NCBI GenBank assembly: GCA_014686905.1
Contig: GCA_014686905.1_4093.1
Reading direction: 5' to 3' (one strand)
Source: a phage
Length of the DNA stretch: 64,000 nt
Part shown: in pieces, positions 5,540 to 35,300 of the stretch
Position numbering within the stretch: position 1 is the stretch's first letter
How the letters are laid out: each line of letters starts with the position of its first letter
Notes under the pieces: model-generated
What the model was told of the DNA's origin: nothing
The model's database searches: none
Seen by the model: only the letters and a program-made list of their open reading frames with translations
Program-made: the position numbers and the translations under genes

Positions 5540-5572
5540 TTATACGAATGTAATATATCTATGGAGGATATA

Positions 5573-6421
5573 ATGGCGAATTTAAAACTACTACAAGAAG
5601 CAATTGCGGCGTTTGCAAATGGCGAACAAGATATTGCTGATAAAAAAATGCGTAAGTATTTCGTTGAGCAAGCTCAAGAAATTAACAAACAACTAGAAGA
5701 AAGCATGGAAGATGAAGACGACGATGAAGATTGTGAAGTCGAAGTTAAAGTCAAAGATGAAGAAAAGCTTGACGAAGATTTTGATGTACAACCAGACGAA
5801 GGTCTAAATGCTGAAATCGAATACACCCTTGGTGAAGAAGATGAAAGTGCAGAAGAAGAAGTTGAATTCTCTGCTGATGCAGATGGTGACGGTGAAGACG
5901 ATGTTGACGTTGAAGTGAAAGCTGATGCTGATGTTCCTTCCGAAGACCAATGGGAATCAATCCAAGATGCTTTCCGTGGCCTACAACAAATGTTTGATGA
6001 AATCGGTGACGGTGAAGTTGATCTAGATTCTGAAGAAGAAGTAGAAGATAGCGAAGAAGAAGTTGGTGTTGACGGTGACGACGAATTTGCTGATGTTGAA
6101 TTCGGCGATGAAAAATTCGGTGAATCCTTCAAACTAGAAAAAGTTGCTCCAGTTGATAAGAAAGAAAAAGCTGGCACTCATTCCAAATCTCCAGTAGCAC
6201 CAGAAGCTAAATCTCCAGTAGCAGGAGCAGAGCCAGTTAAATTCGCTAAGAAAACTGACCAAGCCCCACTACTAGACCTAGATGATAAATCTGTTCTACC
6301 AAAAGATAGCCTAGATCTTGGTAAAAATGCTCGCGGTGAAATGAAAGATGTTAAAGCACCAAAAACTACTGCATCTAATTCTAAATCACCACTAAGCAAA
6401 GCACAACCTAAACTAAAATAA
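5573..6421 (+). CDS. highly acidic prohead core/scaffold-like protein (gp68-like by position); ORF could start at 5561
   Basis: GGAGG 5 nt before the ATG at 5573; long Asp/Glu-rich low-complexity region; synteny with T4 head genes. Confidence 0.5.
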   Translation: MANLKLLQEAIAAFANGEQDIADKKMRKYFVEQAQEINKQLEESMEDEDDDEDCEVEVKVKDEEKLDEDFDVQPDEGLNAEIEYTLGEEDESAEEEVEFSADADGDGEDDVDVEVKADADVPSEDQWESIQDAFRGLQQMFDEIGDGEVDLDSEEEVEDSEEEVGVDGDDEFADVEFGDEKFGESFKLEKVAPVDKKEKAGTHSKSPVAPEAKSPVAGAEPVKFAKKTDQAPLLDLDDKSVLPKDSLDLGKNARGEMKDVKAPKTTASNSKSPLSKAQPKLK

Positions 6422-7131: not shown

Positions 7132-8247
7132 ATGTCTAAATTAGAAAAGCTTCTAAAAGAATCATCTCTTTCTGATGAGGCAAAACAGCTAATTCAGGAA
7201 GCATGGAATGAAGAAAAGAATACACTAGCCGCAGAGATGCGTGAAGAAATGAAAGGCCGTTATCAGCAAGATTTGGCTGAACTAACCGAAGGTTTGAACA
7301 CGATGGTTACTCAAGTCATTGCCGAAGAAATGGGTGCTGTATATGAAGAGAAAAAACGTCTCGTTGAAGATCGTGTAACTCTACGTAAAACACTAAGCAA
7401 TTTCTCTGCGTTTTCAAACTCTGTTTTGGCTGAAGAAGTTAAACAAATGCGTAAAGAACGTAAGCATCTTCATGAATGCATGGGTAAATTCGTTAATTTT
7501 TCTAACGGTATCCTAGCAGAAGAGCTAAAAGAATTCCACACTGAAAAACGCCAACTAGTAGAAACTCGCGTTAAACTACTTGCTGAAGGTTCACGTCAAA
7601 TTGCTGAAGCTCGTAATAACTTCATCAAACGTACATCTGAAAGTGCTGCTAAATATATTGCAGAAACCACTCAGAAGAATCTATATGCGTTGAAACAAGA
7701 TCTAGTGGAAGCAAAACAAAATATGTTTGGTCGTAAAATCTTTGAAGCATTTGCTCAAGAGTTTAATGTCAAACAATTTAATGAAAACTCATTGCTACGT
7801 TCCCTAACTGAATCAATTAAATCTAAAGAAGATGAAATTGCTCAAGTTAAGCAAGAACTACATGAAACTGCTAATGCCGTTAAAGCTGCTAAAACCAAAC
7901 TACGTATTATGGAAGATGCACAAGCACGTAATGCGATTATGTCTGAACTAGTAAAACCACTAACTGCACAGCAAAAACAAATTATGGAATCCCTTCTAGC
8001 TACTTCACCTACTGAAAAGCTTAAAGAAGATTTCAGCAAGTACCATAAGTCAGTACTTAACGGTACTAAAGTAAATGAATCTGCTACCACTCGTCAAGCA
8101 GTTCAGTCTTCCGCTAAGAAAACTCTTGCAGAAGGTAAAGTAATCACTGGCAACCGTCAGGCTATTGTTGAAAGCGAAGAAATGACCGCTGACGATATGG
8201 CATTCCTAAAAGAACTAGATGTTCTTTCAGGTATCAATAAAAAATAA
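7132..8247 (+). CDS. 22: prohead scaffolding core protein (gp22-like)
   Basis: Coiled-coil-type E/K/Q/A-rich sequence; sits between protease and MCP; RBS AAAGGAGAG. Confidence 0.7.
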   Translation: MSKLEKLLKESSLSDEAKQLIQEAWNEEKNTLAAEMREEMKGRYQQDLAELTEGLNTMVTQVIAEEMGAVYEEKKRLVEDRVTLRKTLSNFSAFSNSVLAEEVKQMRKERKHLHECMGKFVNFSNGILAEELKEFHTEKRQLVETRVKLLAEGSRQIAEARNNFIKRTSESAAKYIAETTQKNLYALKQDLVEAKQNMFGRKIFEAFAQEFNVKQFNENSLLRSLTESIKSKEDEIAQVKQELHETANAVKAAKTKLRIMEDAQARNAIMSELVKPLTAQQKQIMESLLATSPTEKLKEDFSKYHKSVLNGTKVNESATTRQAVQSSAKKTLAEGKVITGNRQAIVESEEMTADDMAFLKELDVLSGINKK

Positions 8248-8338: not shown

Positions 8339-9514
8339 ATGTCACAACTACTAAATGAATCCAAATGGGTAGCAGTAAAAGAGAAACTAGTTGAAGGTCT
8401 ACAGGGTACTCGTAAGTCTGTAATGGAAACTGTTCTTGATAACCATCGTAAAGTTATGCTAACTGAATCCGCAACTTCTGGTGCAACTACCGCTGGTAAC
8501 ATCGCTACTCTAAACAAAGTGATTCTACCAATTATGCGTCGTGTAATGCCAACCGTTATTGCTAACGAAATCATCGGTGTTCAACCTATGACTGGTCCAG
8601 TTGGTCAGATCCACACCCTACGTGTACAATATGCTGATAACGCACCTGGTGTAATCGCTGGTGAAGAAATGCTTTCTCCATACAAAATCGCTAAATCTTA
8701 CTCTGGTGATCTAAATGCGGATAATAGCAACCCACAAGCTGCTCCTACTAGCCAACTAGAAGGTACTATGGGTCGTCGCGTTAACATCCGTATTCTACGT
8801 GAAACTGTTGAAGCGAAATCTCGTCGTCTATCTGCACGTTGGACTGTTGAATCTGCACAAGATGCACAATCCCAACATGGTGTTGACGTTGAAGCAGAAC
8901 TAATGGCTGCAATCGCTCAAGAAGTTACCGTAGAAATCGACCAAGAGCTACTAAGCCGTCTACGTGCACTACCTGGTGCTGCTGCTGTAACTTATGACCA
9001 ATCTAAAGTTACTGGTGTTGCAACCTTCGTTGGTGATGAGCACGCTGCTCTAGCAACTCTAATTAACCGTCAAGCAAACGAAGTTGCTCGTCGTACTAAG
9101 CGTGGTGCTGCAAACTGGGCTGTTGTTTCCCCAACTGCACTAACCATTCTACAATCTGCTACTACTTCTAGCTTTGCACGTACCACTGAAGGTACTTTCG
9201 AAGCCCCAACTAACGTTAAGTTTGTAGGTACACTAAACAGCACTATGCGTATTTTTGTTGATACTTATGCAAGTGATGCAGAAGATATTCTAATTGGTTA
9301 TAAAGGTAATGCAGAAACTGATGCTGGTGTGTTCTATTGCCCATACATCCCACTAATGGCTTCCGGTACTGTAATGGACCCTAACACTGGGGAATTGGTC
9401 ACAACTTTCCTTACCAGGTATGGTTATGTACAATTGACTGATAGTACTTCTTCTCTTGGTAACGCTGCTGACTACTACAGCAAAATCGCTATCAAAAACG
9501 TTACTTTCATGTAA
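8339..9514 (+). CDS. 23: major capsid protein (T4 gp23 family)
   Basis: IIGVQPMTGPVGQIHTLRVQY, RETVEAKSRRLSARWTVESAQD and GYKGNAETDAGVFYCPYIPL align with T4 gp23 blocks (ICGVQPM..., VIEAKSRQLKA..., GYKGPNEMDAGIYYAPYV); 391 aa, shorter than T4 gp23. Confidence 0.9.
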   Translation: MSQLLNESKWVAVKEKLVEGLQGTRKSVMETVLDNHRKVMLTESATSGATTAGNIATLNKVILPIMRRVMPTVIANEIIGVQPMTGPVGQIHTLRVQYADNAPGVIAGEEMLSPYKIAKSYSGDLNADNSNPQAAPTSQLEGTMGRRVNIRILRETVEAKSRRLSARWTVESAQDAQSQHGVDVEAELMAAIAQEVTVEIDQELLSRLRALPGAAAVTYDQSKVTGVATFVGDEHAALATLINRQANEVARRTKRGAANWAVVSPTALTILQSATTSSFARTTEGTFEAPTNVKFVGTLNSTMRIFVDTYASDAEDILIGYKGNAETDAGVFYCPYIPLMASGTVMDPNTGELVTTFLTRYGYVQLTDSTSSLGNAADYYSKIAIKNVTFM

Positions 9515-11333: not shown

Positions 11334-12944
11334 ATGAGCATAAGTTTTAATAACCCATTGGATACAATGACCAGTACTGGTGCTAATGGATCTTTAGAAC
11401 TAATAGTGCTTGGTGGTACACCAACTAACCCAAGACCTATTCGTTTTAACTCGTCATCAGTTATCATACCAGTACAAACTTTACCAACTGGTGAACAAGG
11501 TGCAATGGTCTTTGATAGAAACGAGTTAGTTTTGAAGTATCATAACGGTACTAGTTGGATTGCAGTATACGATACTGATACCATTTTAGAACCAATTAGA
11601 ATTTCACTTGATGAAGTAAATAGAAAACTAAATTTAAAAGTAGAAAGTGTAACTTATAGTAGTAGTACTGTTCCTAGTGCAAGTATTAGTGGAACAAACT
11701 TAAACATTGTATTCCCTACTGCTTCTAGTGGTGGTTCTGGTCCAACTGGTCTTTACACTTCACTTAAACCTGGTGCTATTACACAATATTCATTGACTTC
11801 TGGTCAATCTGTTGCTAGTATACGTGAACAAATGTCAGGACAATCGAATGGACAAAGTGGGAGAAACGGTTCACAAGGTGCTCCGTGGAAAACGTCTGAC
11901 GGTTGGTGTTTTGCTGATGGTATGTGGTGGCAATGGGAGGGGGAAAATGGTACAATTACCAAACAAGTACCAAACCTTAACCAAAACGCGTACTTAAAAG
12001 GGATATCCACATCAGGTGTAACTAAAACTGATAGTGTTATTGGTAGTAGCGGTAATATTAGCGGCACAGTATTAAGTGTTGCCCAATTACCATCACACTC
12101 ATTTAGTTTTAGTGGGACCACAGGGGCTGCTGGTCGTCATGGTCATAGTCAAGCACTAAAAGGTATGGACCGTAGTGGTCTAAATGCGTTAACTTCAAGT
12201 AATGATAACGGTATACCAACTGTAATCAATAACATTAACGAAGCACCAGACCACATTCACTCATTTAGTGGAAACACTAACACACTTGGTGGAAACCAAC
12301 CACACTATCATGGTATTAGTAACATTGATGTGGAACACTTTAACGTTGCATATCTATATAACATTGCTGAATCTAACGTCGCATTGAGTGAAAAAGTTGC
12401 AAACACTCGTTATGTACTAAAAACTGGTGATACAATGACTGGTTCATTGACTATTGCAAACAGTGCGTCAATTAAGTCAAATGATACATCATTAGTTCTA
12501 TATTTCCGTAACGCAAGCGGTGGTGAGCGTGCGGCAGTGTATCATAACTCTTCAAATAATACATTGAGATTACGTTCCGGTGGAGCAGAAGTTACTGTAA
12601 ACTCTTCTGGTACGTTAGCTGCTCCATCATTAACTGTTTCTAACAACTCAGCTACTGTTGGTGGTAAAAATATTGTTCGTTCAATTAACGGTACTGCTGC
12701 TGATGCTAGTGGCAACGTTACTTTGCAAATTAGTACTAATAACGTACAAAGTATTCGTTTGAGTGCACGTATTGAAACAAGTAAAATACCTGATTCTTCA
12801 TGGACATATACACCAGAAGGTGCATTTATGGATGGCGTATGGATTTCTGTTAATGGTAGTTCAGGCACTCACTTAGAACGAATTAGTTATCGCTATGTTC
12901 AAATGCAAATAAATGGTAACTGGGAAACAGTACGTCAACAATAA
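11334..12944 (+). CDS. tail fibre protein with collar-like domain and HxH motifs
   Basis: Ser/Thr/Gly/Asn-rich; LPSHSFSF collar-like motif; HGHS, HIHS and HYHG as in T4 fibre tips; followed by an assembly-chaperone-like gene. Confidence 0.75.
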   Translation: MSISFNNPLDTMTSTGANGSLELIVLGGTPTNPRPIRFNSSSVIIPVQTLPTGEQGAMVFDRNELVLKYHNGTSWIAVYDTDTILEPIRISLDEVNRKLNLKVESVTYSSSTVPSASISGTNLNIVFPTASSGGSGPTGLYTSLKPGAITQYSLTSGQSVASIREQMSGQSNGQSGRNGSQGAPWKTSDGWCFADGMWWQWEGENGTITKQVPNLNQNAYLKGISTSGVTKTDSVIGSSGNISGTVLSVAQLPSHSFSFSGTTGAAGRHGHSQALKGMDRSGLNALTSSNDNGIPTVINNINEAPDHIHSFSGNTNTLGGNQPHYHGISNIDVEHFNVAYLYNIAESNVALSEKVANTRYVLKTGDTMTGSLTIANSASIKSNDTSLVLYFRNASGGERAAVYHNSSNNTLRLRSGGAEVTVNSSGTLAAPSLTVSNNSATVGGKNIVRSINGTAADASGNVTLQISTNNVQSIRLSARIETSKIPDSSWTYTPEGAFMDGVWISVNGSSGTHLERISYRYVQMQINGNWETVRQQ

Positions 12945-18503: not shown

Positions 18504-18803
18504 ATGAAAATTAAAATGATTAATGATTACGTTCTTGTTCGACAAATTGAAGCACAGAATAAAAGTACTGGTGGTATTATTCTAGGTAATGTTGAACCAC
18601 CATGTATTGGGATGGTAATTTCCGTTGGTCCAGGTAAAATTCTTCCGAACGGACAACTTGCAGAACATAATATTAAAGAAGGTGATATGGTTGTGTTTGG
18701 TCGTTCATCTTTGAACACGCCACTGACTGAAGATCTTGGTGGCGGCGAAGATACATATTATGTAATGAAAATCGAAGAGATTTTTGGTAAGAAAAATGGC
18801 TAA
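18504..18803 (+). CDS. GroES/Cpn10 co-chaperonin homolog (ORF opens at 18441)
   Basis: DYVLVRQIEAQNKSTGGIIL and GMVISVGPGKILPNGQ...IKEGDMVVF align with E. coli GroES ([36 protein letters not shown]...VKVGDIVIF); GGAGG RBS before the ATG at 18504. Confidence 0.85.
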   Translation: MKIKMINDYVLVRQIEAQNKSTGGIILGNVEPPCIGMVISVGPGKILPNGQLAEHNIKEGDMVVFGRSSLNTPLTEDLGGGEDTYYVMKIEEIFGKKNG

Positions 18804-19521
18804 AAAGAAATTTATTCCATTTTGGATGGTCCCTGCTCACTGGGGACTTTCTGGAAAGGCAAAAGAGATAGCTAAAGCATACTACTACAATGATGATTAT
18901 GAAGCTGATATGAAAGTTGCTGAATTGACATATCTAACTCCATATGAAGTTGAAGTGGCCCAATTGGATATTAAAAAGAAATATAGCGTAATTGGAGATT
19001 TGGAATATCTAATTGCTGTACTTGATGTTGAACTAAAATATTCTAAAATTACTCGTGAACAGTATGATGTTAAAGTTCTTGATGCAAAACTAAGTATTGG
19101 AGTTATTACAGAAAAAGAATATGATATGGAAATCATTGAGTTAATGCCAGAAGGTGATGAAAAAAGGCTTAAGGCTATTGAATTTGCATATCGTTACGAT
19201 GAAATCACACAAAGTGAATATTCTAAGGAAATATACACACTTCGTAAAGAACCTTGGATTGATTTGGATGTTGTTCTTGATCCTGAAACTAATGAAGTTG
19301 AGTTTGTATTTGACTATAATGAATATTTCTGGAAAAAGTTGAAAGCTGAAGGTCATCCAGGAAATGATGAAGAAGAAATTATCGATAACTTTGTGAGAGA
19401 CTTGGGGCGTAAACTTGCTACGGATGATTTCAGTGATGATTACGACACAAAGCTGGTGAGTGCGAACGAAGGATTAGACAAGCTACCTGGTTTGCCTGAA
19501 GGATTTCGTTCATATAGATAA
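18796..19521 (+). CDS. hypothetical protein (about 241 aa; ORF opens at 18784)
   Basis: ORF overlapping the GroES stop by 8 nt. Confidence 0.45.
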   Translation: MAKKKFIPFWMVPAHWGLSGKAKEIAKAYYYNDDYEADMKVAELTYLTPYEVEVAQLDIKKKYSVIGDLEYLIAVLDVELKYSKITREQYDVKVLDAKLSIGVITEKEYDMEIIELMPEGDEKRLKAIEFAYRYDEITQSEYSKEIYTLRKEPWIDLDVVLDPETNEVEFVFDYNEYFWKKLKAEGHPGNDEEEIIDNFVRDLGRKLATDDFSDDYDTKLVSANEGLDKLPGLPEGFRSYR

Positions 19522-19524
19522 CAT

Positions 19525-19560
19525 ATAAAAAAAGGAGAGCAAATGCTCTCCTTTTCTTTT
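19525..19560. terminator. bidirectional rho-independent terminator between convergent genes
   Basis: A-run, AAGGAGAGC-AAAT-GCTCTCCTT, T-run; plus-strand gene ends at 19521, minus-strand gene ends at 19569. Confidence 0.8.
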
Positions 19561-19568
19561 GAAAAATA

Positions 19569-20258
19569 TTAAACCAATGCTGGGATGTATTGGAAAAGTT
19601 TAACACCGAAATCACCTGCTGCATCAGCAGATTGGGAACGTAGGTAAACTTCGGTAACACCATCTTTAGCAAGTAGTGGAACACCAGTTAGATCATCAAT
19701 TAGTAGACGGCCTTCTTCGGATTCAGTACTTGGTACACCTTGTGGTGATTTAAGATCTTTGTTAAAGACACCAGCACGTTCAACTAGGAAGGTAACAACA
19801 GAAGCATCAGCAATACTAACTGAACCTGCACTCAATACACCATCAGGTGCGTTGGTGAAACCAGTAACTGGAAATACTTCAAGACCATTACCTGCGATGT
19901 TAGAGGTAGCGATGATAACCGCACGTTGTTGAACAACATCGACAATACGTTTAACGTTAGTTTGTGCTGCATAAGATGCATTGTAATCAGCTTCTAGTGT
20001 GCCAAGAACAAATGCAGTTCCATCAATACGTTTGATACCTTTATCATTTAGATATGCTAGAATTTCTTCTGGAATATCAGTGTTTAGAAAACGTTGTAGA
20101 CCAGCATAAGAAGAAACTGCACCAGTAACTAGAACGTTTACGTTTCCTAGCTTACTGATAGCAATGGATGCTAGGGCGTTAGTGCCACAAAAGTAACCTA
20201 GAATACGTTCAAAGGAATAACCATTGATACGTTCAAAAGAAGTATTAGTATATGACAT
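19569..20258 (-). CDS. paralog A of a tandem pair; putative late virion structural protein
   Basis: Shares QQRAV(L/I)(V/I)(T/A)TS and F(I/L)(C/V)ER..VFNK blocks with the adjacent gene; late-type promoter elements upstream of the pair. Confidence 0.55.
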   Translation of the reverse strand: MSYTNTSFERINGYSFERILGYFCGTNALASIAISKLGNVNVLVTGAVSSYAGLQRFLNTDIPEEILAYLNDKGIKRIDGTAFVLGTLEADYNASYAAQTNVKRIVDVVQQRAVIIATSNIAGNGLEVFPVTGFTNAPDGVLSAGSVSIADASVVTFLVERAGVFNKDLKSPQGVPSTESEEGRLLIDDLTGVPLLAKDGVTEVYLRSQSADAAGDFGVKLFQYIPALV

Positions 20259-20272
20259 AATCTATCCTCCTA

Positions 20273-20872
20273 TTATAGTTGAACAGGAAGAGCAGCACGT
20301 ACTTTAATTGCTACAGCAGTAGATGCACCTGCATCACCAACACCATCAGTACCTTGACTTACGAAAGTTTTGGTACGGAAAACTTTAGCTTGAGCGATAG
20401 ACTTAGCTAGGTCAACAGTTGGATCAACTGGAGCAGGACATGCTGAACCAGGACGAACTTCTTGCTTGTTAAATACGTCTTGACGTTCACAGATGAAAGT
20501 CAATGCAACAGAATTAGCACCACCTGCTACATCAGCACCACTAGTACCGAACGCAACTACGTTTGGATTAGCATTTTTGAAATCAGCAGGAATAACAACT
20601 TCTGAATCAAGAGCTAGTAGAGAGGTAGTAACTAGAACTGCACGTTGTTGTAGTAGTTGGGTAACCATGAATAGGTTATATTGAGCATTACTTAGAGCAG
20701 TTTGATACGCTTCAGCTTGAACATCAGAACCGTCAGAAGTAACTTTGGTAGTACCTAGTTCAACATCAGTTGGTAGATCGATTACGATGGTAACGAAACC
20801 GTTATTACCACCCCACCATTCGCGAGCAACGCTAGACATACCATAGTTACGGTTAAAAGAATTAAGACTCAT
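20273..20872 (-). CDS. paralog B of a tandem pair; putative late virion structural protein
   Basis: Paralogous to 19569-20258; GGAGA RBS on the minus strand; ATAAATAA elements upstream. Confidence 0.55.
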   Translation of the reverse strand: MSLNSFNRNYGMSSVAREWWGGNNGFVTIVIDLPTDVELGTTKVTSDGSDVQAEAYQTALSNAQYNLFMVTQLLQQRAVLVTTSLLALDSEVVIPADFKNANPNVVAFGTSGADVAGGANSVALTFICERQDVFNKQEVRPGSACPAPVDPTVDLAKSIAQAKVFRTKTFVSQGTDGVGDAGASTAVAIKVRAALPVQL

Positions 20873-20974
20873 GAAAATCTCCTTGTCAAATTTTGTGCAG
20901 GTATATCCTGCTTAAAGTTATTTATCAAAAAATATCACTAGCATTTAAATTTACTGAGATATTTAATGAATTTC

Positions 20975-20990
20975 TATGATATTATTTATC
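20975..20990 (-). promoter_or_regulatory. conserved late-promoter/leader element copy C (GATAAATAATATCATA on the minus strand)
   Basis: Same 15-nt core as at 8287 and 5523; a second ATAAATAA lies about 50 nt upstream of the minus-strand start. Confidence 0.5.
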
Positions 20991-20995
20991 AAATC

Positions 20996-21024
20996 TGGGA
21001 AAGTGATTCAAGATGTGCTATAAT
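20996..21024 (+). promoter_or_regulatory. extended -10 promoter TGTGCTATAAT for the FEN gene
   Basis: TGnTATAAT at 21016-21024; weak -35. Confidence 0.5.
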
Positions 21025-21033
21025 TATCAATGA

Positions 21034-26291
<5,258 letters not shown>

Positions 26292-26418: not shown

Positions 26419-27471
26419 ATGAAATCTCTAGCTGAAATTCGTGCACACCTAAAAGCAGAACAAGAAAAAGCAGAAGCTCAAAAGAATGGTACATTTACTG
26501 GCGAGCGTAAAGCTGATTCGTTCTTAGCTTTCTGGAACGTACCTTATAACGAACCACTAAACCTACGTTTTCTACCAGATGCAGATGAGTCTAACCCATT
26601 CTTCTGGCGTGAACGTGACATGATTAACCTAACTTTCAATGGTGTAGTCGGTATGCACACTGATAAAGTTACCGTTCAAGTACCTTGTAACGAAATGTGG
26701 GTTCCTAAATCCTGTCCGATTCTGAAAGAAGTACGTCAATGGTTCCAAAGTGCGAATGAAACAGGGAACGAAGAACTAAAAGCAATGGCTGGTCGTTACT
26801 GGAAGAAGAAAACCTATCTAATGCAATGTTTTATTGCTCCTGATAGCGTTGCAGTAAAAGACGACATTGCACCAGAAAATCCAATTCGTCGTATTCTGGC
26901 TAACAAAGATATCTTTGATAAAGTTAAATCCATCCTGCTAAACCCAGGCATCAAAGAGTCTCCAACTCACTACGTTCAAGGTCGTGATTTTGGTATTGTT
27001 AAAACTAAGAATGGTGGTGGTTATAATAGCTACGACATGTCTCAATTCTCCATGTCTGAGCGTCCACTAAACGAAGAAGAACTAGCAGCAATTGAAAAAT
27101 ATGGCCTATACAATCTAAATGATTTTATGCCAAAACAACCAACTCCAGAAGAGTTGAAAGCAATTGAAGAAATGTTCGAAGCATCAGTAAATGGTGAAGC
27201 ATATGATCCAGCACGTTGGGCATTTGCATATCGTCCAGCAGGTGTACCAAAACCTAACTCTGGAACTGTTACTGAATCAAAACCAACTCCTGCTCCAGTA
27301 CAACAAGAGTCAGCACCTGCACCAGTAGCACCTACTGCTCCAGTTACACCAGCCCCACAAGCTGCTCCAGTAACTCCAGTCGCTACCCCAGCAGCAACCA
27401 CTCCTGAAGCACCAAAAGAACAACTATCTGCATCTGCACTAGTTGCTCGTTTGAAACAACAAGGTAAGTAA
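26419..27471 (+). CDS. 32: single-stranded DNA-binding protein (gp32-like) with Pro/Ala-rich C-terminal tail
   Basis: LRFLPDADESNPF resembles T4 gp32 IRFLPSKNDEQAPF; sits next to uvsX; RBS AAGGAAG. Confidence 0.75.
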   Translation: MKSLAEIRAHLKAEQEKAEAQKNGTFTGERKADSFLAFWNVPYNEPLNLRFLPDADESNPFFWRERDMINLTFNGVVGMHTDKVTVQVPCNEMWVPKSCPILKEVRQWFQSANETGNEELKAMAGRYWKKKTYLMQCFIAPDSVAVKDDIAPENPIRRILANKDIFDKVKSILLNPGIKESPTHYVQGRDFGIVKTKNGGGYNSYDMSQFSMSERPLNEEELAAIEKYGLYNLNDFMPKQPTPEELKAIEEMFEASVNGEAYDPARWAFAYRPAGVPKPNSGTVTESKPTPAPVQQESAPAPVAPTAPVTPAPQAAPVTPVATPAATTPEAPKEQLSASALVARLKQQGK

Positions 27472-34344: not shown

Positions 34345-34960
34345 ACATTATAGAAAAGCCCGAACTGATATTGACATTGACTTCAAGGATAGTAAAAGCG
34401 TAATCGCTAAACTTCCATGTGTGCGAAGTACTGAAAAAATTACGGAGGATGGTTTAATCCCCCATAATAGTGGTGTTCATTTTGATAATATACCTATTGA
34501 TCCAATCACTGGATTGGCAAGTATACAATATAAAGAAGCTGAAAGGTTAGGGTATCAAAAAGTTGATATTCTTTCACAGTCAGCTTACATGTATGTTCGT
34601 GATAGAGAGCATTTAAAAGAACTAATGAATCAGGAACCAAATTGGGATCTATTGTTAGAACCCGAAATTGTAGAACATCTATCGCAAATTAAAAAACATG
34701 TAACTTTATTAAATGTATGGAAGCCTAAATCTATAGACGAACTAGCAATGTTTATTGCAATGATTCGCCCAGGAAAAAGGCAGTGCCAAAGTATGAACAC
34801 ATGGGACGAAGTTAAAGCTACCATATGGGATTATAGTACTATAGGCACTGACCAAGCAGGAAATAAATTACGATATTTCAAAAAGCCACATGCTTACGCA
34901 TATAGCTTAATGATTGTTGTACAACTAAATGCTTTAGTTGAACATCTTACTTCTTCTTAA
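34322..34960 (+). CDS. hypothetical protein with DnaE (Pol III alpha) finger-like motifs
   Basis: KVDILSQ, LAMFIAMIRPG and KKPHAYAYSL resemble DnaE motifs KMDFLGL, ALVALFRPGP and NKSHSAAYAL (from memory) in the same order. Confidence 0.4.
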   Translation: MQDSTDSKHYRKARTDIDIDFKDSKSVIAKLPCVRSTEKITEDGLIPHNSGVHFDNIPIDPITGLASIQYKEAERLGYQKVDILSQSAYMYVRDREHLKELMNQEPNWDLLLEPEIVEHLSQIKKHVTLLNVWKPKSIDELAMFIAMIRPGKRQCQSMNTWDEVKATIWDYSTIGTDQAGNKLRYFKKPHAYAYSLMIVVQLNALVEHLTSS

Positions 34961-35300
34961 GAGCCACATTACGACGCTTGATGCGTTTCTGTGGCAAATT
35001 GCTTAAAGAAACTACTGGACCACATACGAAATTCACCGACGGTGTATCGAATCTCTGTGTGTACGGTTCAAATTTCTCCATCTCTTCTTGAAAGAATAGA
35101 CAAACTGGAATGGTTCTATTACTTTGCCACCACCAATCGTGTGCTATACCTAACAATTCGTCTTGCATTGAATCATCCATATCATCGAAACAGTAAAGAG
35201 TTGTATACTGTTTGCTTTTGATTTTGATGATACCAACAAACGTTTTACCATCATACTGGATTACAGTAATGAATGGTGGAATAGTGTTATATTGATTCAT
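34947..35300 (-). CDS. hypothetical protein (117 aa) - lone minus-strand ORF inside a + strand block
   Basis: ORF only; Trp-rich; basic C-terminus. Confidence 0.35.
   Translation of the reverse strand: MNQYNTIPPFITVIQYDGKTFVGIIKIKSKQYTTLYCFDDMDDSMQDELLGIAHDWWWQSNRTIPVCLFFQEEMEKFEPYTQRFDTPSVNFVCGPVVSLSNLPQKRIKRRNVALKKK

Follow-up and report, generated by a model that had tools for sequence, protein, structure and literature searches.

Phage RaK2 carries two proteins, gp106w (24.6 kDa) and gp107w (21.1 kDa), which were described in 2013 as 'two distantly related proteins' that are abundant and unprocessed in the virion, where they give visible bands at their predicted masses in sodium dodecyl sulfate–polyacrylamide gel electrophoresis (PMC3622015). 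Here, we analysed a stretch of phage DNA of 64,000 nucleotides (nt) (GenBank assembly GCA_014686905.1, contig GCA_014686905.1_4093.1; hereafter the window), in which two adjacent minus-strand genes encode proteins of 229 and 199 amino acids (aa) that belong to the same family (PHROG 9326, which also comprises GAP32_264/265, CBB_270/271, phAPEC6 gp211/gp210 and 121Q gene 618 with its neighbour). The pair shares with this family its tandem order, its location in an opposite-strand island between rnh and GroES, its presence in the virion and the lack of processing. There is no difference at the sequence level; the difference lies in the interpretation, the published suggestion of a tail-tube role being supported neither by the fold nor by the gene neighbourhood. 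From published proteomics and the identity established here, both products are paralogs that rank with the most abundant proteins in mature particles and retain their N-termini.

Identity and abundance of the two proteins

Between positions 19300 and 21200, the sequence agrees completely (100% identity) with that of Escherichia phage vB_Eco_slurp01; identity is 99.8% with PBECO4 and phAPEC6 and 98.8% with G17. All of these belong to the Asteriusvirus jumbo myoviruses, which are about 350 kb in size and part of the 'RaK2-like' group (PBECO4/121Q/phAPEC6 group). The window itself comes from an Asteriusvirus jumbo coliphage. The 199-aa protein has exact (100%) counterparts in 121Q, PBECO4 and phAPEC6, and the pair shows 69% identity to its RaK2 orthologs. 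A preliminary description of this DNA had proposed that the two adjacent minus-strand genes are paralogous, quoting conserved blocks that they share. The coordinates (Table 1) and two comparisons bear this out. BLASTP aligns the 199-aa and 229-aa proteins with E = 8e-9 (35% identity over 89 aa), along a stretch that includes the quoted blocks (QQRAVLVTTS/QQRAVIIATS and FICERQDVFNK/FLVERAGVFNK), and both proteins match phrog_9326 ('virion structural protein') over its full length (E = 4.5e-86 and 1.3e-86, profile positions 1–195 of 195). An alignment of 25 sequences, with both paralogs from many phages, contains 14 invariant columns, among which are R8, G11, G22, N24, the QRAV core of the QQRAV block (Q76–V79) and E129–R130. 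The 229-aa form has the core of the 199-aa protein; what sets it apart is mainly an inserted helical stretch of about 30 residues. Both proteins are acidic, with an isoelectric point (pI) range of 4.2–5.5 across the family. A small internal duplication, SFERINGY-SFERILGY, is also found within the conserved N-terminal arm of the 229-aa protein, encoded by a tandem 24-nt repeat (79% identical) at 20194–20241 on the minus strand.

The published virion analyses place the pair at or near the top of sequence coverage. In RaK2, the two proteins (55.4% and 53.5%) are the best covered of 54 virion proteins, the capsid protein reaching 26.5% and the sheath 28.3% (PMC3622015). CBB_270 reaches 91.3%, the highest of 55 proteins in CBB virions, with 56.4% for CBB_271, while phAPEC6 gp210 and gp211 are covered at 69.8% and 69.9%, respectively, next to 74.9% for the capsid protein and 68% for the sheath; GAP32 virions also contain both orthologs. 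Virion proteomics, one of the checks named in the preliminary description, is thus positive in RaK2, GAP32, CBB and phAPEC6. Moreover, the CBB peptide table lists the N-terminal tryptic peptide INGFSESGVLGYFYGK (residues 5–20 of CBB_270) in 11 rows and NYGMSANSR (residues 9–17 of CBB_271) in eight rows. Since these peptides start at residues 5 and 9, the N-termini are retained in the virion. Together with the migration of the RaK2 proteins at their predicted masses, they show no removal of an N-terminal propeptide of the T4 IP or phiKZ inner-body type. The structural reading of the preliminary description therefore stands, as the products are virion structural proteins, paralogous and of late type, whereas the implied unrecognised status of the pair does not: it was described in 2013 in RaK2 (PMC3622015), RefSeq labels both proteins as virion structural proteins, and its paralogy, abundance and virion presence are already known from these sources.

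Codon usage points in the same direction as coverage. We used a score of the codon adaptation index type, with the capsid, scaffold and SSB genes as the reference, to rank 71 genes. The 199-aa gene comes first (0.79) and the 229-aa gene third (0.75), compared with 0.77 for the capsid gene, 0.68 for the sheath gene and 0.62 for the best tube candidate considered below. In common with the three reference genes, the pair has an extreme codon set: it uses CTA for 15 of 22 and 11 of 15 leucines, CGT for arginine and GGT for glycine, and contains no ATA. Leucine is encoded chiefly by CTA, which E. coli uses rarely, in the capsid (8339–9514), scaffold (7132–8247) and SSB (26419–27471) genes as well as in the pair (19569–20872); the window holds no tRNA gene, and a phage-encoded tRNA-Leu(UAG) elsewhere in the genome may serve these codons. 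The fifth rank (0.73) belongs to a plus-strand gene of 286 aa at 5561–6421, between the portal and prohead protease genes. Its position corresponds to that of T4 gp67/gp68. Its product is a candidate for a processed core or inner-body protein, and its phAPEC6 ortholog, gp228c, has a mass spectrometry (MS) coverage of 16.7%.

Predicted fold and place in the particle

AlphaFold2 models built with family alignments reach a predicted local distance difference test (pLDDT) score of 80.5 and a predicted template modelling score (pTM) of 0.77 for the 199-aa protein, and 78.9 and 0.76, respectively, for the 229-aa protein. In both models, the first 20 or so residues are of low confidence, and the remainder forms a β-α-β-β-β-α-β sandwich that includes a single helix of about 26 residues. 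The core is predicted to be a generic ferredoxin-like α/β sandwich. The invariant arm residues R8, G11, G22 and N24 lie in or beside the region with pLDDT below 50, and such an arm, conserved yet disordered in the modelled monomer, suggests folding upon binding to a partner.

In agreement with the preliminary description, which could not assign the pair to sheath, tube or a known capsid accessory, the models resemble none of these. Tail tube, sheath, Hoc, Soc, fibritin and other phage structural proteins are all missing from the top 60 matches in the fold search of either model, and neither model matches a solved structure of a decoration or cement protein. The tandem immunoglobulin-like domains of a Hoc-like protein are not found, as Pfam returns no Ig/Big domain and the models are α/β rather than all-β; nor is the small Soc fold or sequence (about 9–10 kDa), nor the long trimeric coiled coil with a C-terminal foldon of fibritin, the single helix of the pair being packed on the β-sheet. 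A search of PDB sequences with the family profile gave nothing below E = 0.1. Pfam and NCBIfam hold no family for the pair, the sole Pfam line (GLMA_C, E = 0.097) falling far short of the cut-off. Two GenBank labels, 'hemagglutinin repeat-containing protein' for phAPEC6 gp211 (MK817115) and 'recombination protein' in CRJP21 (OQ708376), are not borne out by Pfam, NCBIfam or PHROG searches. In viral predicted structures (BFVD), Foldseek recovered only family members together with weak matches to unnamed proteins of other jumbo phages, for example Atu_ph07 (E = 8.5e-4, template modelling score 0.36–0.49). Finally, an exhaustive profile search of 1.84 billion representative proteins returned only 42 matches, and the family is therefore small and restricted to a clade. 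Its weakest member, P0143, sits in an unrelated and uninformative phage context.

What these proteins do in the particle has been the subject of one published suggestion, that one of the pair is the tail tube subunit (PMC3622015). The RaK2 authors found no tube gene, and the size of 21–25 kDa, the abundance and the predicted β content all speak for this assignment, as does the label 'putative tail protein' given to both proteins in RaK2 Supplementary Table S3 (PMC3622015). Tube proteins of the T4 gp19 type are indeed of similar size and also highly abundant in a contractile-tailed virion. However, they have another fold and their gene lies beside that of the sheath, whereas the pair is predicted to be ferredoxin-like, without the β-sandwich of T4 gp19, Hcp or lambda gpV, and is distant from the sheath gene, which is far outside the window (PBECO4 20149–22812). 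Neither protein matches a tube family in Pfam, NCBIfam or PHROG, and the pair is more strongly codon-biased than the sheath gene. Better candidates exist: in PBECO4, the three genes directly downstream of the 97-kDa sheath gene, in the arrangement of T4 gp18–gp19, match phrog_4542 'tail tube protein' (up to 5e-86), and two of them have weak matches to the general tube family phrog_45 as well. The candidate used as a query, gp021, is 80% identical to its RaK2 counterpart, against 69% for the pair, and its family, often annotated as tail tube there, reaches PA5oct-like, Atu_ph07, Phosso and XacN1 phages, in which the pair family gave no tblastn match. Two of the tube candidates, searched against PDB sequences, gave no matches, so that the tube assignment rests on PHROG matches, position and distribution; the MS coverage of the tube candidates in phAPEC6 is modest (9–30%). 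Given the fold of the pair and the conservation and distribution of the sheath-adjacent candidates, we consider a tube role very unlikely, and the published guess appears to be wrong.

We put first a role of the pair as external accessory proteins, for decoration or cement, of the T=28 capsid, a reading to which we would give somewhat less than an even chance. It is placed first because of an abundance at least that of the capsid protein, the absence of processing, the acidity, the clade-restricted distribution and the conserved disordered N-terminal arms. The capsid protein of this phage belongs to the gp23 family, and the proposed likeness to T4 Soc/Hoc, lambda gpD, T5 pb10 and the β-tulip and jellyroll cement proteins is that of late, high-copy, unprocessed and seemingly non-essential additions to an HK97/gp23-type shell. 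Cryo-electron microscopy of phAPEC6 (at 10 Å) and 121Q has revealed an unassigned elongated protein that forms a hexagonal ridge network across the local twofold axes, in a 1:1 ratio to the capsid protein, as well as an unassigned dimer-shaped protein that anchors a fibre at the centre of each hexamer. The ridge network and the hexamer-centre anchor are both candidate densities for the pair, which would probably act jointly as a hetero-oligomer. Several points weigh against this reading. The capsid location is one that we infer, coverage and codon bias being only rough proxies of copy number. Other small phAPEC6 proteins with high coverage (gp347, 75%; gp306c, 66%; gp253, 66%) are rivals for these densities and might themselves be the decoration proteins. 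As there is no match to a decoration or cement fold and none to a PDB sequence, no positive structural argument for a capsid role can be made. The RaK2 authors, moreover, classed both as putative tail proteins (PMC3622015), and a sheath-associated protein present at about 150 copies could also yield strong MS signals, as the sheath itself does.

This last possibility deserves to be weighed in its own right: the pair might coat the sheath or anchor the fibres of 'hairy' tails, with about 150 copies of each protein. The sheath, at about that copy number, has nearly the coverage of the pair in phAPEC6 (68% versus 70%), the 25 Å map of the phAPEC6 tail leaves room for additional sheath-bound proteins, and the RaK2 supplement names both as tail proteins (PMC3622015). 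Yet in RaK2 the coverage of the pair is about twice that of the sheath, its codon bias is above that of the sheath gene, and the tail decorations described in that map are 12-copy features at two levels, too few for the best-covered proteins. The hair fibres, besides, are reported for CBB, phAPEC6 and 121Q and are not described for RaK2 and GAP32, whereas the pair occurs across the range of sequenced relatives searched. We regard a place on the tail exterior as unlikely.

An internal location is, in our view, no more probable than the tail exterior. Bubblegrams of 121Q and phAPEC6 show an inner body of about 91 × 18 nm whose components are unassigned; hundreds of copies of small proteins would be needed to build it. 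The inner-body proteins of phiKZ are encoded by neighbouring paralogous genes, so that the likeness to the pair extends to abundant virion proteins from adjacent paralogs in a jumbo phage with an inner body. Head-internal proteins of the T4 type and of phiKZ are, however, generally cut by the prohead protease, whereas both proteins of the pair are unprocessed, as seen from the full-size migration in RaK2 and the N-terminal peptides in CBB; they also lack sequence similarity to the phiKZ paralogs, and their acidity is ill-suited to direct DNA binding. The phAPEC6 authors found no similarity to the phiKZ inner body and favour RCC1-like 'DNA condensation' paralogs, and the product of the 5561–6421 gene, with its high codon bias and low MS coverage, is a better-placed candidate core protein. 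Besides the capsid exterior, the sheath, the head interior and the tube, some other location altogether keeps a small but real share of the probability.

The opposite-strand island and its expression signals

The preliminary description had singled out the pair as the only sizeable minus-strand genes in a plus-strand region. This holds from about 1215 to 34947, where all other long non-nested open reading frames lie on the plus strand; the next annotated minus-strand gene is PBECO4 gp487, at 34947–35300. The latter is a lone gene encoding a hypothetical protein of 117 aa, with CATAAATA 45 nt upstream of its start, and resembles another small opposite-strand island of late genes. The RefSeq gene order around the pair is DNA polymerase, zinc-ribbon protein, GroES, virion protein, the pair, RNase H, large terminase and SSB. 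The tandem pair is opposite in strand to its flanks, between rnh and the GroES cluster, in PBECO4, G17, phAPEC6, RaK2, CBB and the contigs L009 and L016, and an opposite-strand island of two or three genes recurs down to metagenomic contigs with about 20–38% identity. In Vibrio phage 2.275.O (L006, 1135–3206) the island consists of three tandem paralogs that all match the family, gene 486 being placed there through the link of its record to RaK2 gp106w and the other two by direct tests. Contig L012 (7068–9390) also has three opposite-strand genes in the island; one of them (P0026) was confirmed as a member of the phrog_9326 family, to which the first shows no detectable similarity. The distance from the pair to the capsid gene is about 10 kb in the window and about 4 kb to the gp23-type capsid gene of the relative L016.

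Two flanking genes also call for comment. The start of the RNase H gene (21040–22077, plus strand) varies between annotations, from 21181 in PBECO4 and 21090/21091 in G17 to a TTG at 21040 for the longest open reading frame, so that the divergent intergenic region between it and the pair measures 167–308 nt according to the annotation used. On the other side, the plus-strand gene at 18796–19521, which overlaps the end of the GroES gene by 8 nt, encodes a very acidic protein of 241/245 aa (pI 4.6; 53 Asp and Glu residues) with repeated '...EY...' motifs that matches phrog_13349 'virion structural protein'. In RaK2 virions the ortholog gp105 was detected at 21.7% coverage, but the proteome tables of phAPEC6 and CBB do not list theirs.

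Table 1. Features of the pair and of its flanking signals in the window.
Feature	Position	Strand	Description
199-aa gene (operon-proximal)	20273–20872	minus	20.9-kDa, acidic (pI 4.8) virion protein; ortholog of phAPEC6 gp210, RaK2 gp107w and CBB_271
229-aa gene (operon-distal)	19569–20258	minus	24.3-kDa, acidic (pI 4.6) virion protein; ortholog of phAPEC6 gp211, RaK2 gp106w and CBB_270
Proximal T4-type late promoter motif GATAAATA	20919–20926	minus	54 nt upstream of the ATG of the 199-aa gene
Distal late promoter motif GATAAATA	20983–20990	minus	118 nt upstream of the ATG of the 199-aa gene
Leader hairpin GCAGG-ATATA-CCTGC	20897–20911	minus	Begins 8 nt past the proximal promoter motif
Ribosome-binding site AAGGAG of the 199-aa gene	20879–20884	minus	Read from the sequence
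Ribosome-binding site AGGAGG of the 229-aa gene	20266–20271	minus	7 nt before the ATG, in the 14-nt spacer
Bidirectional intrinsic terminator hairpin	19527–19558	both	Between the end of the plus-strand gene (19521) and the end of the 229-aa gene (19569)

The late-promoter-like elements, strong ribosome-binding sites and bidirectional terminator that the preliminary description had listed for the pair are all recovered (Table 1). As in T4-type late genes, a TATAAATA-like motif stands shortly upstream, and PBECO4 is annotated with a gp55-like late sigma factor. The two copies of GATAAATA form a 12-nt direct repeat, 64 nt apart, and the context of the distal copy, GATAAATAATATCATA, matches that of the capsid-gene promoter, TATAAATAATATCATA, at 15 of 16 positions. 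The arrangement is conserved: in RaK2, CBB and the Vibrio phage an equivalent motif precedes the orthologous pair by 59–64 nt, and RaK2 and CBB have a second one further upstream (at 123 and 128 nt). In the window, NATAAATA is found 25–65 nt upstream of the capsid (8339), scaffold (7132), prohead protease (6442) and gp231 (1215) genes, and likewise upstream of the genes at 11334, 18296 and 24940 and of the minus-strand baseplate-hub gene (plus-strand positions 1175, 6417, 7077, 8286, 11295, 18232 and 24903; minus-strand positions 1126, 20926, 20990 and 35345). The 7-mer ATAAATA, on the other hand, is depleted, with 21 occurrences observed against 38 ± 5 expected. This placement and depletion are consistent with the pattern of a functional T4-type late promoter and of selection against stray copies.

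Neither a promoter motif nor a terminator was found by our motif and terminator scans in the 14-nt spacer that separates the two genes, which are therefore co-transcribed. Downstream, the terminator is an inverted repeat with 15-nt arms (93% complementary) and with an A-run and a T-run on its sides. The terminator scan calls the minus-strand site (14 pairs followed by a T-run), the annotators of G17 called a plus-strand terminator at the equivalent site, and an equivalent hairpin lies 3′ of the pair in five relatives (RaK2, CBB, the Vibrio phage, L009 and L012).

The leader carries a further conserved element. RNA folding predicts a hairpin of 5–6 base pairs at one and the same position in all seven leaders considered (the window, RaK2, CBB, two genes of the Vibrio phage, L009 and L012), although the stems differ in sequence (GCAGG/CCTGC, GTAAG/CTTAC, GCAGGT/ACCTGC, CCAGG/CCTGG, GCCAG/CTGGC, GCAGC/GCTGC and GGAAGC/GCTTCC). 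The MAFFT alignment of the seven leaders left the hairpins out of register, and covariation was therefore judged from the individual folds. In each leader the hairpin is followed by an A-rich tract, a GGAGAT(T/C) block and the ATG. The block, which includes the ribosome-binding site of the 199-aa gene, reads GGAGATTT in six leaders and GGAGATCC in Vibrio gene 487. The window gave no match in Rfam or tRNA scans. The hairpin may be a 5′-terminal stabiliser of late mRNA. A hairpin directly after TATAAATA is also present in the leaders of the scaffold (7132) and zinc-ribbon (18296) genes.

Taken together, these elements outline how the pair could be produced and used. One or two gp55-type late promoters (NATAAATA) would drive transcription, and the transcript would probably open with the conserved 5′ hairpin and end at the terminator common to the convergent plus-strand gene. 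Two strong Shine–Dalgarno sites would direct the translation of both proteins, the conserved arm and helix of which would then bind the capsid-protein lattice. We tentatively propose, as a possibility that we hold a little short of an even chance, that the pair represents a new structural class: a heterodimer of ferredoxin-like paralogs with N-terminal arms that would form the ridge network or the hexamer-centre fibre anchor on RaK2-like T=28 capsids, expressed from a late promoter coupled to a conserved 5′-terminal mRNA hairpin.

Meaning for the RaK2-like phages

The gain of this analysis is a corrected hypothesis on a known and annotated gene pair rather than a discovery. To what was already described, it adds the rejection of the published tube guess from fold and context, a quantified argument on expression from codon bias, the persistence in distant relatives of the opposite-strand island between rnh and GroES, and the conserved leader in which a late promoter is followed by a hairpin. 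Across a whole clade of jumbo phages of about 350 kb, several of which are under consideration for therapy, few components rival this pair in abundance. For RaK2-like phages, no capsid structure at high resolution turned up in our literature searches, and the place of the pair in the particle has been unassigned since 2013; assigning it would fill a named gap in the capsid maps of 121Q and phAPEC6. Sensitivity to CsCl has been reported for 121Q. Such an assignment could show how a T=28 shell made of a small gp23-type capsid protein is reinforced. If true, the capsid-accessory reading would give T=28 jumbo capsids a decoration protein of a new fold class.

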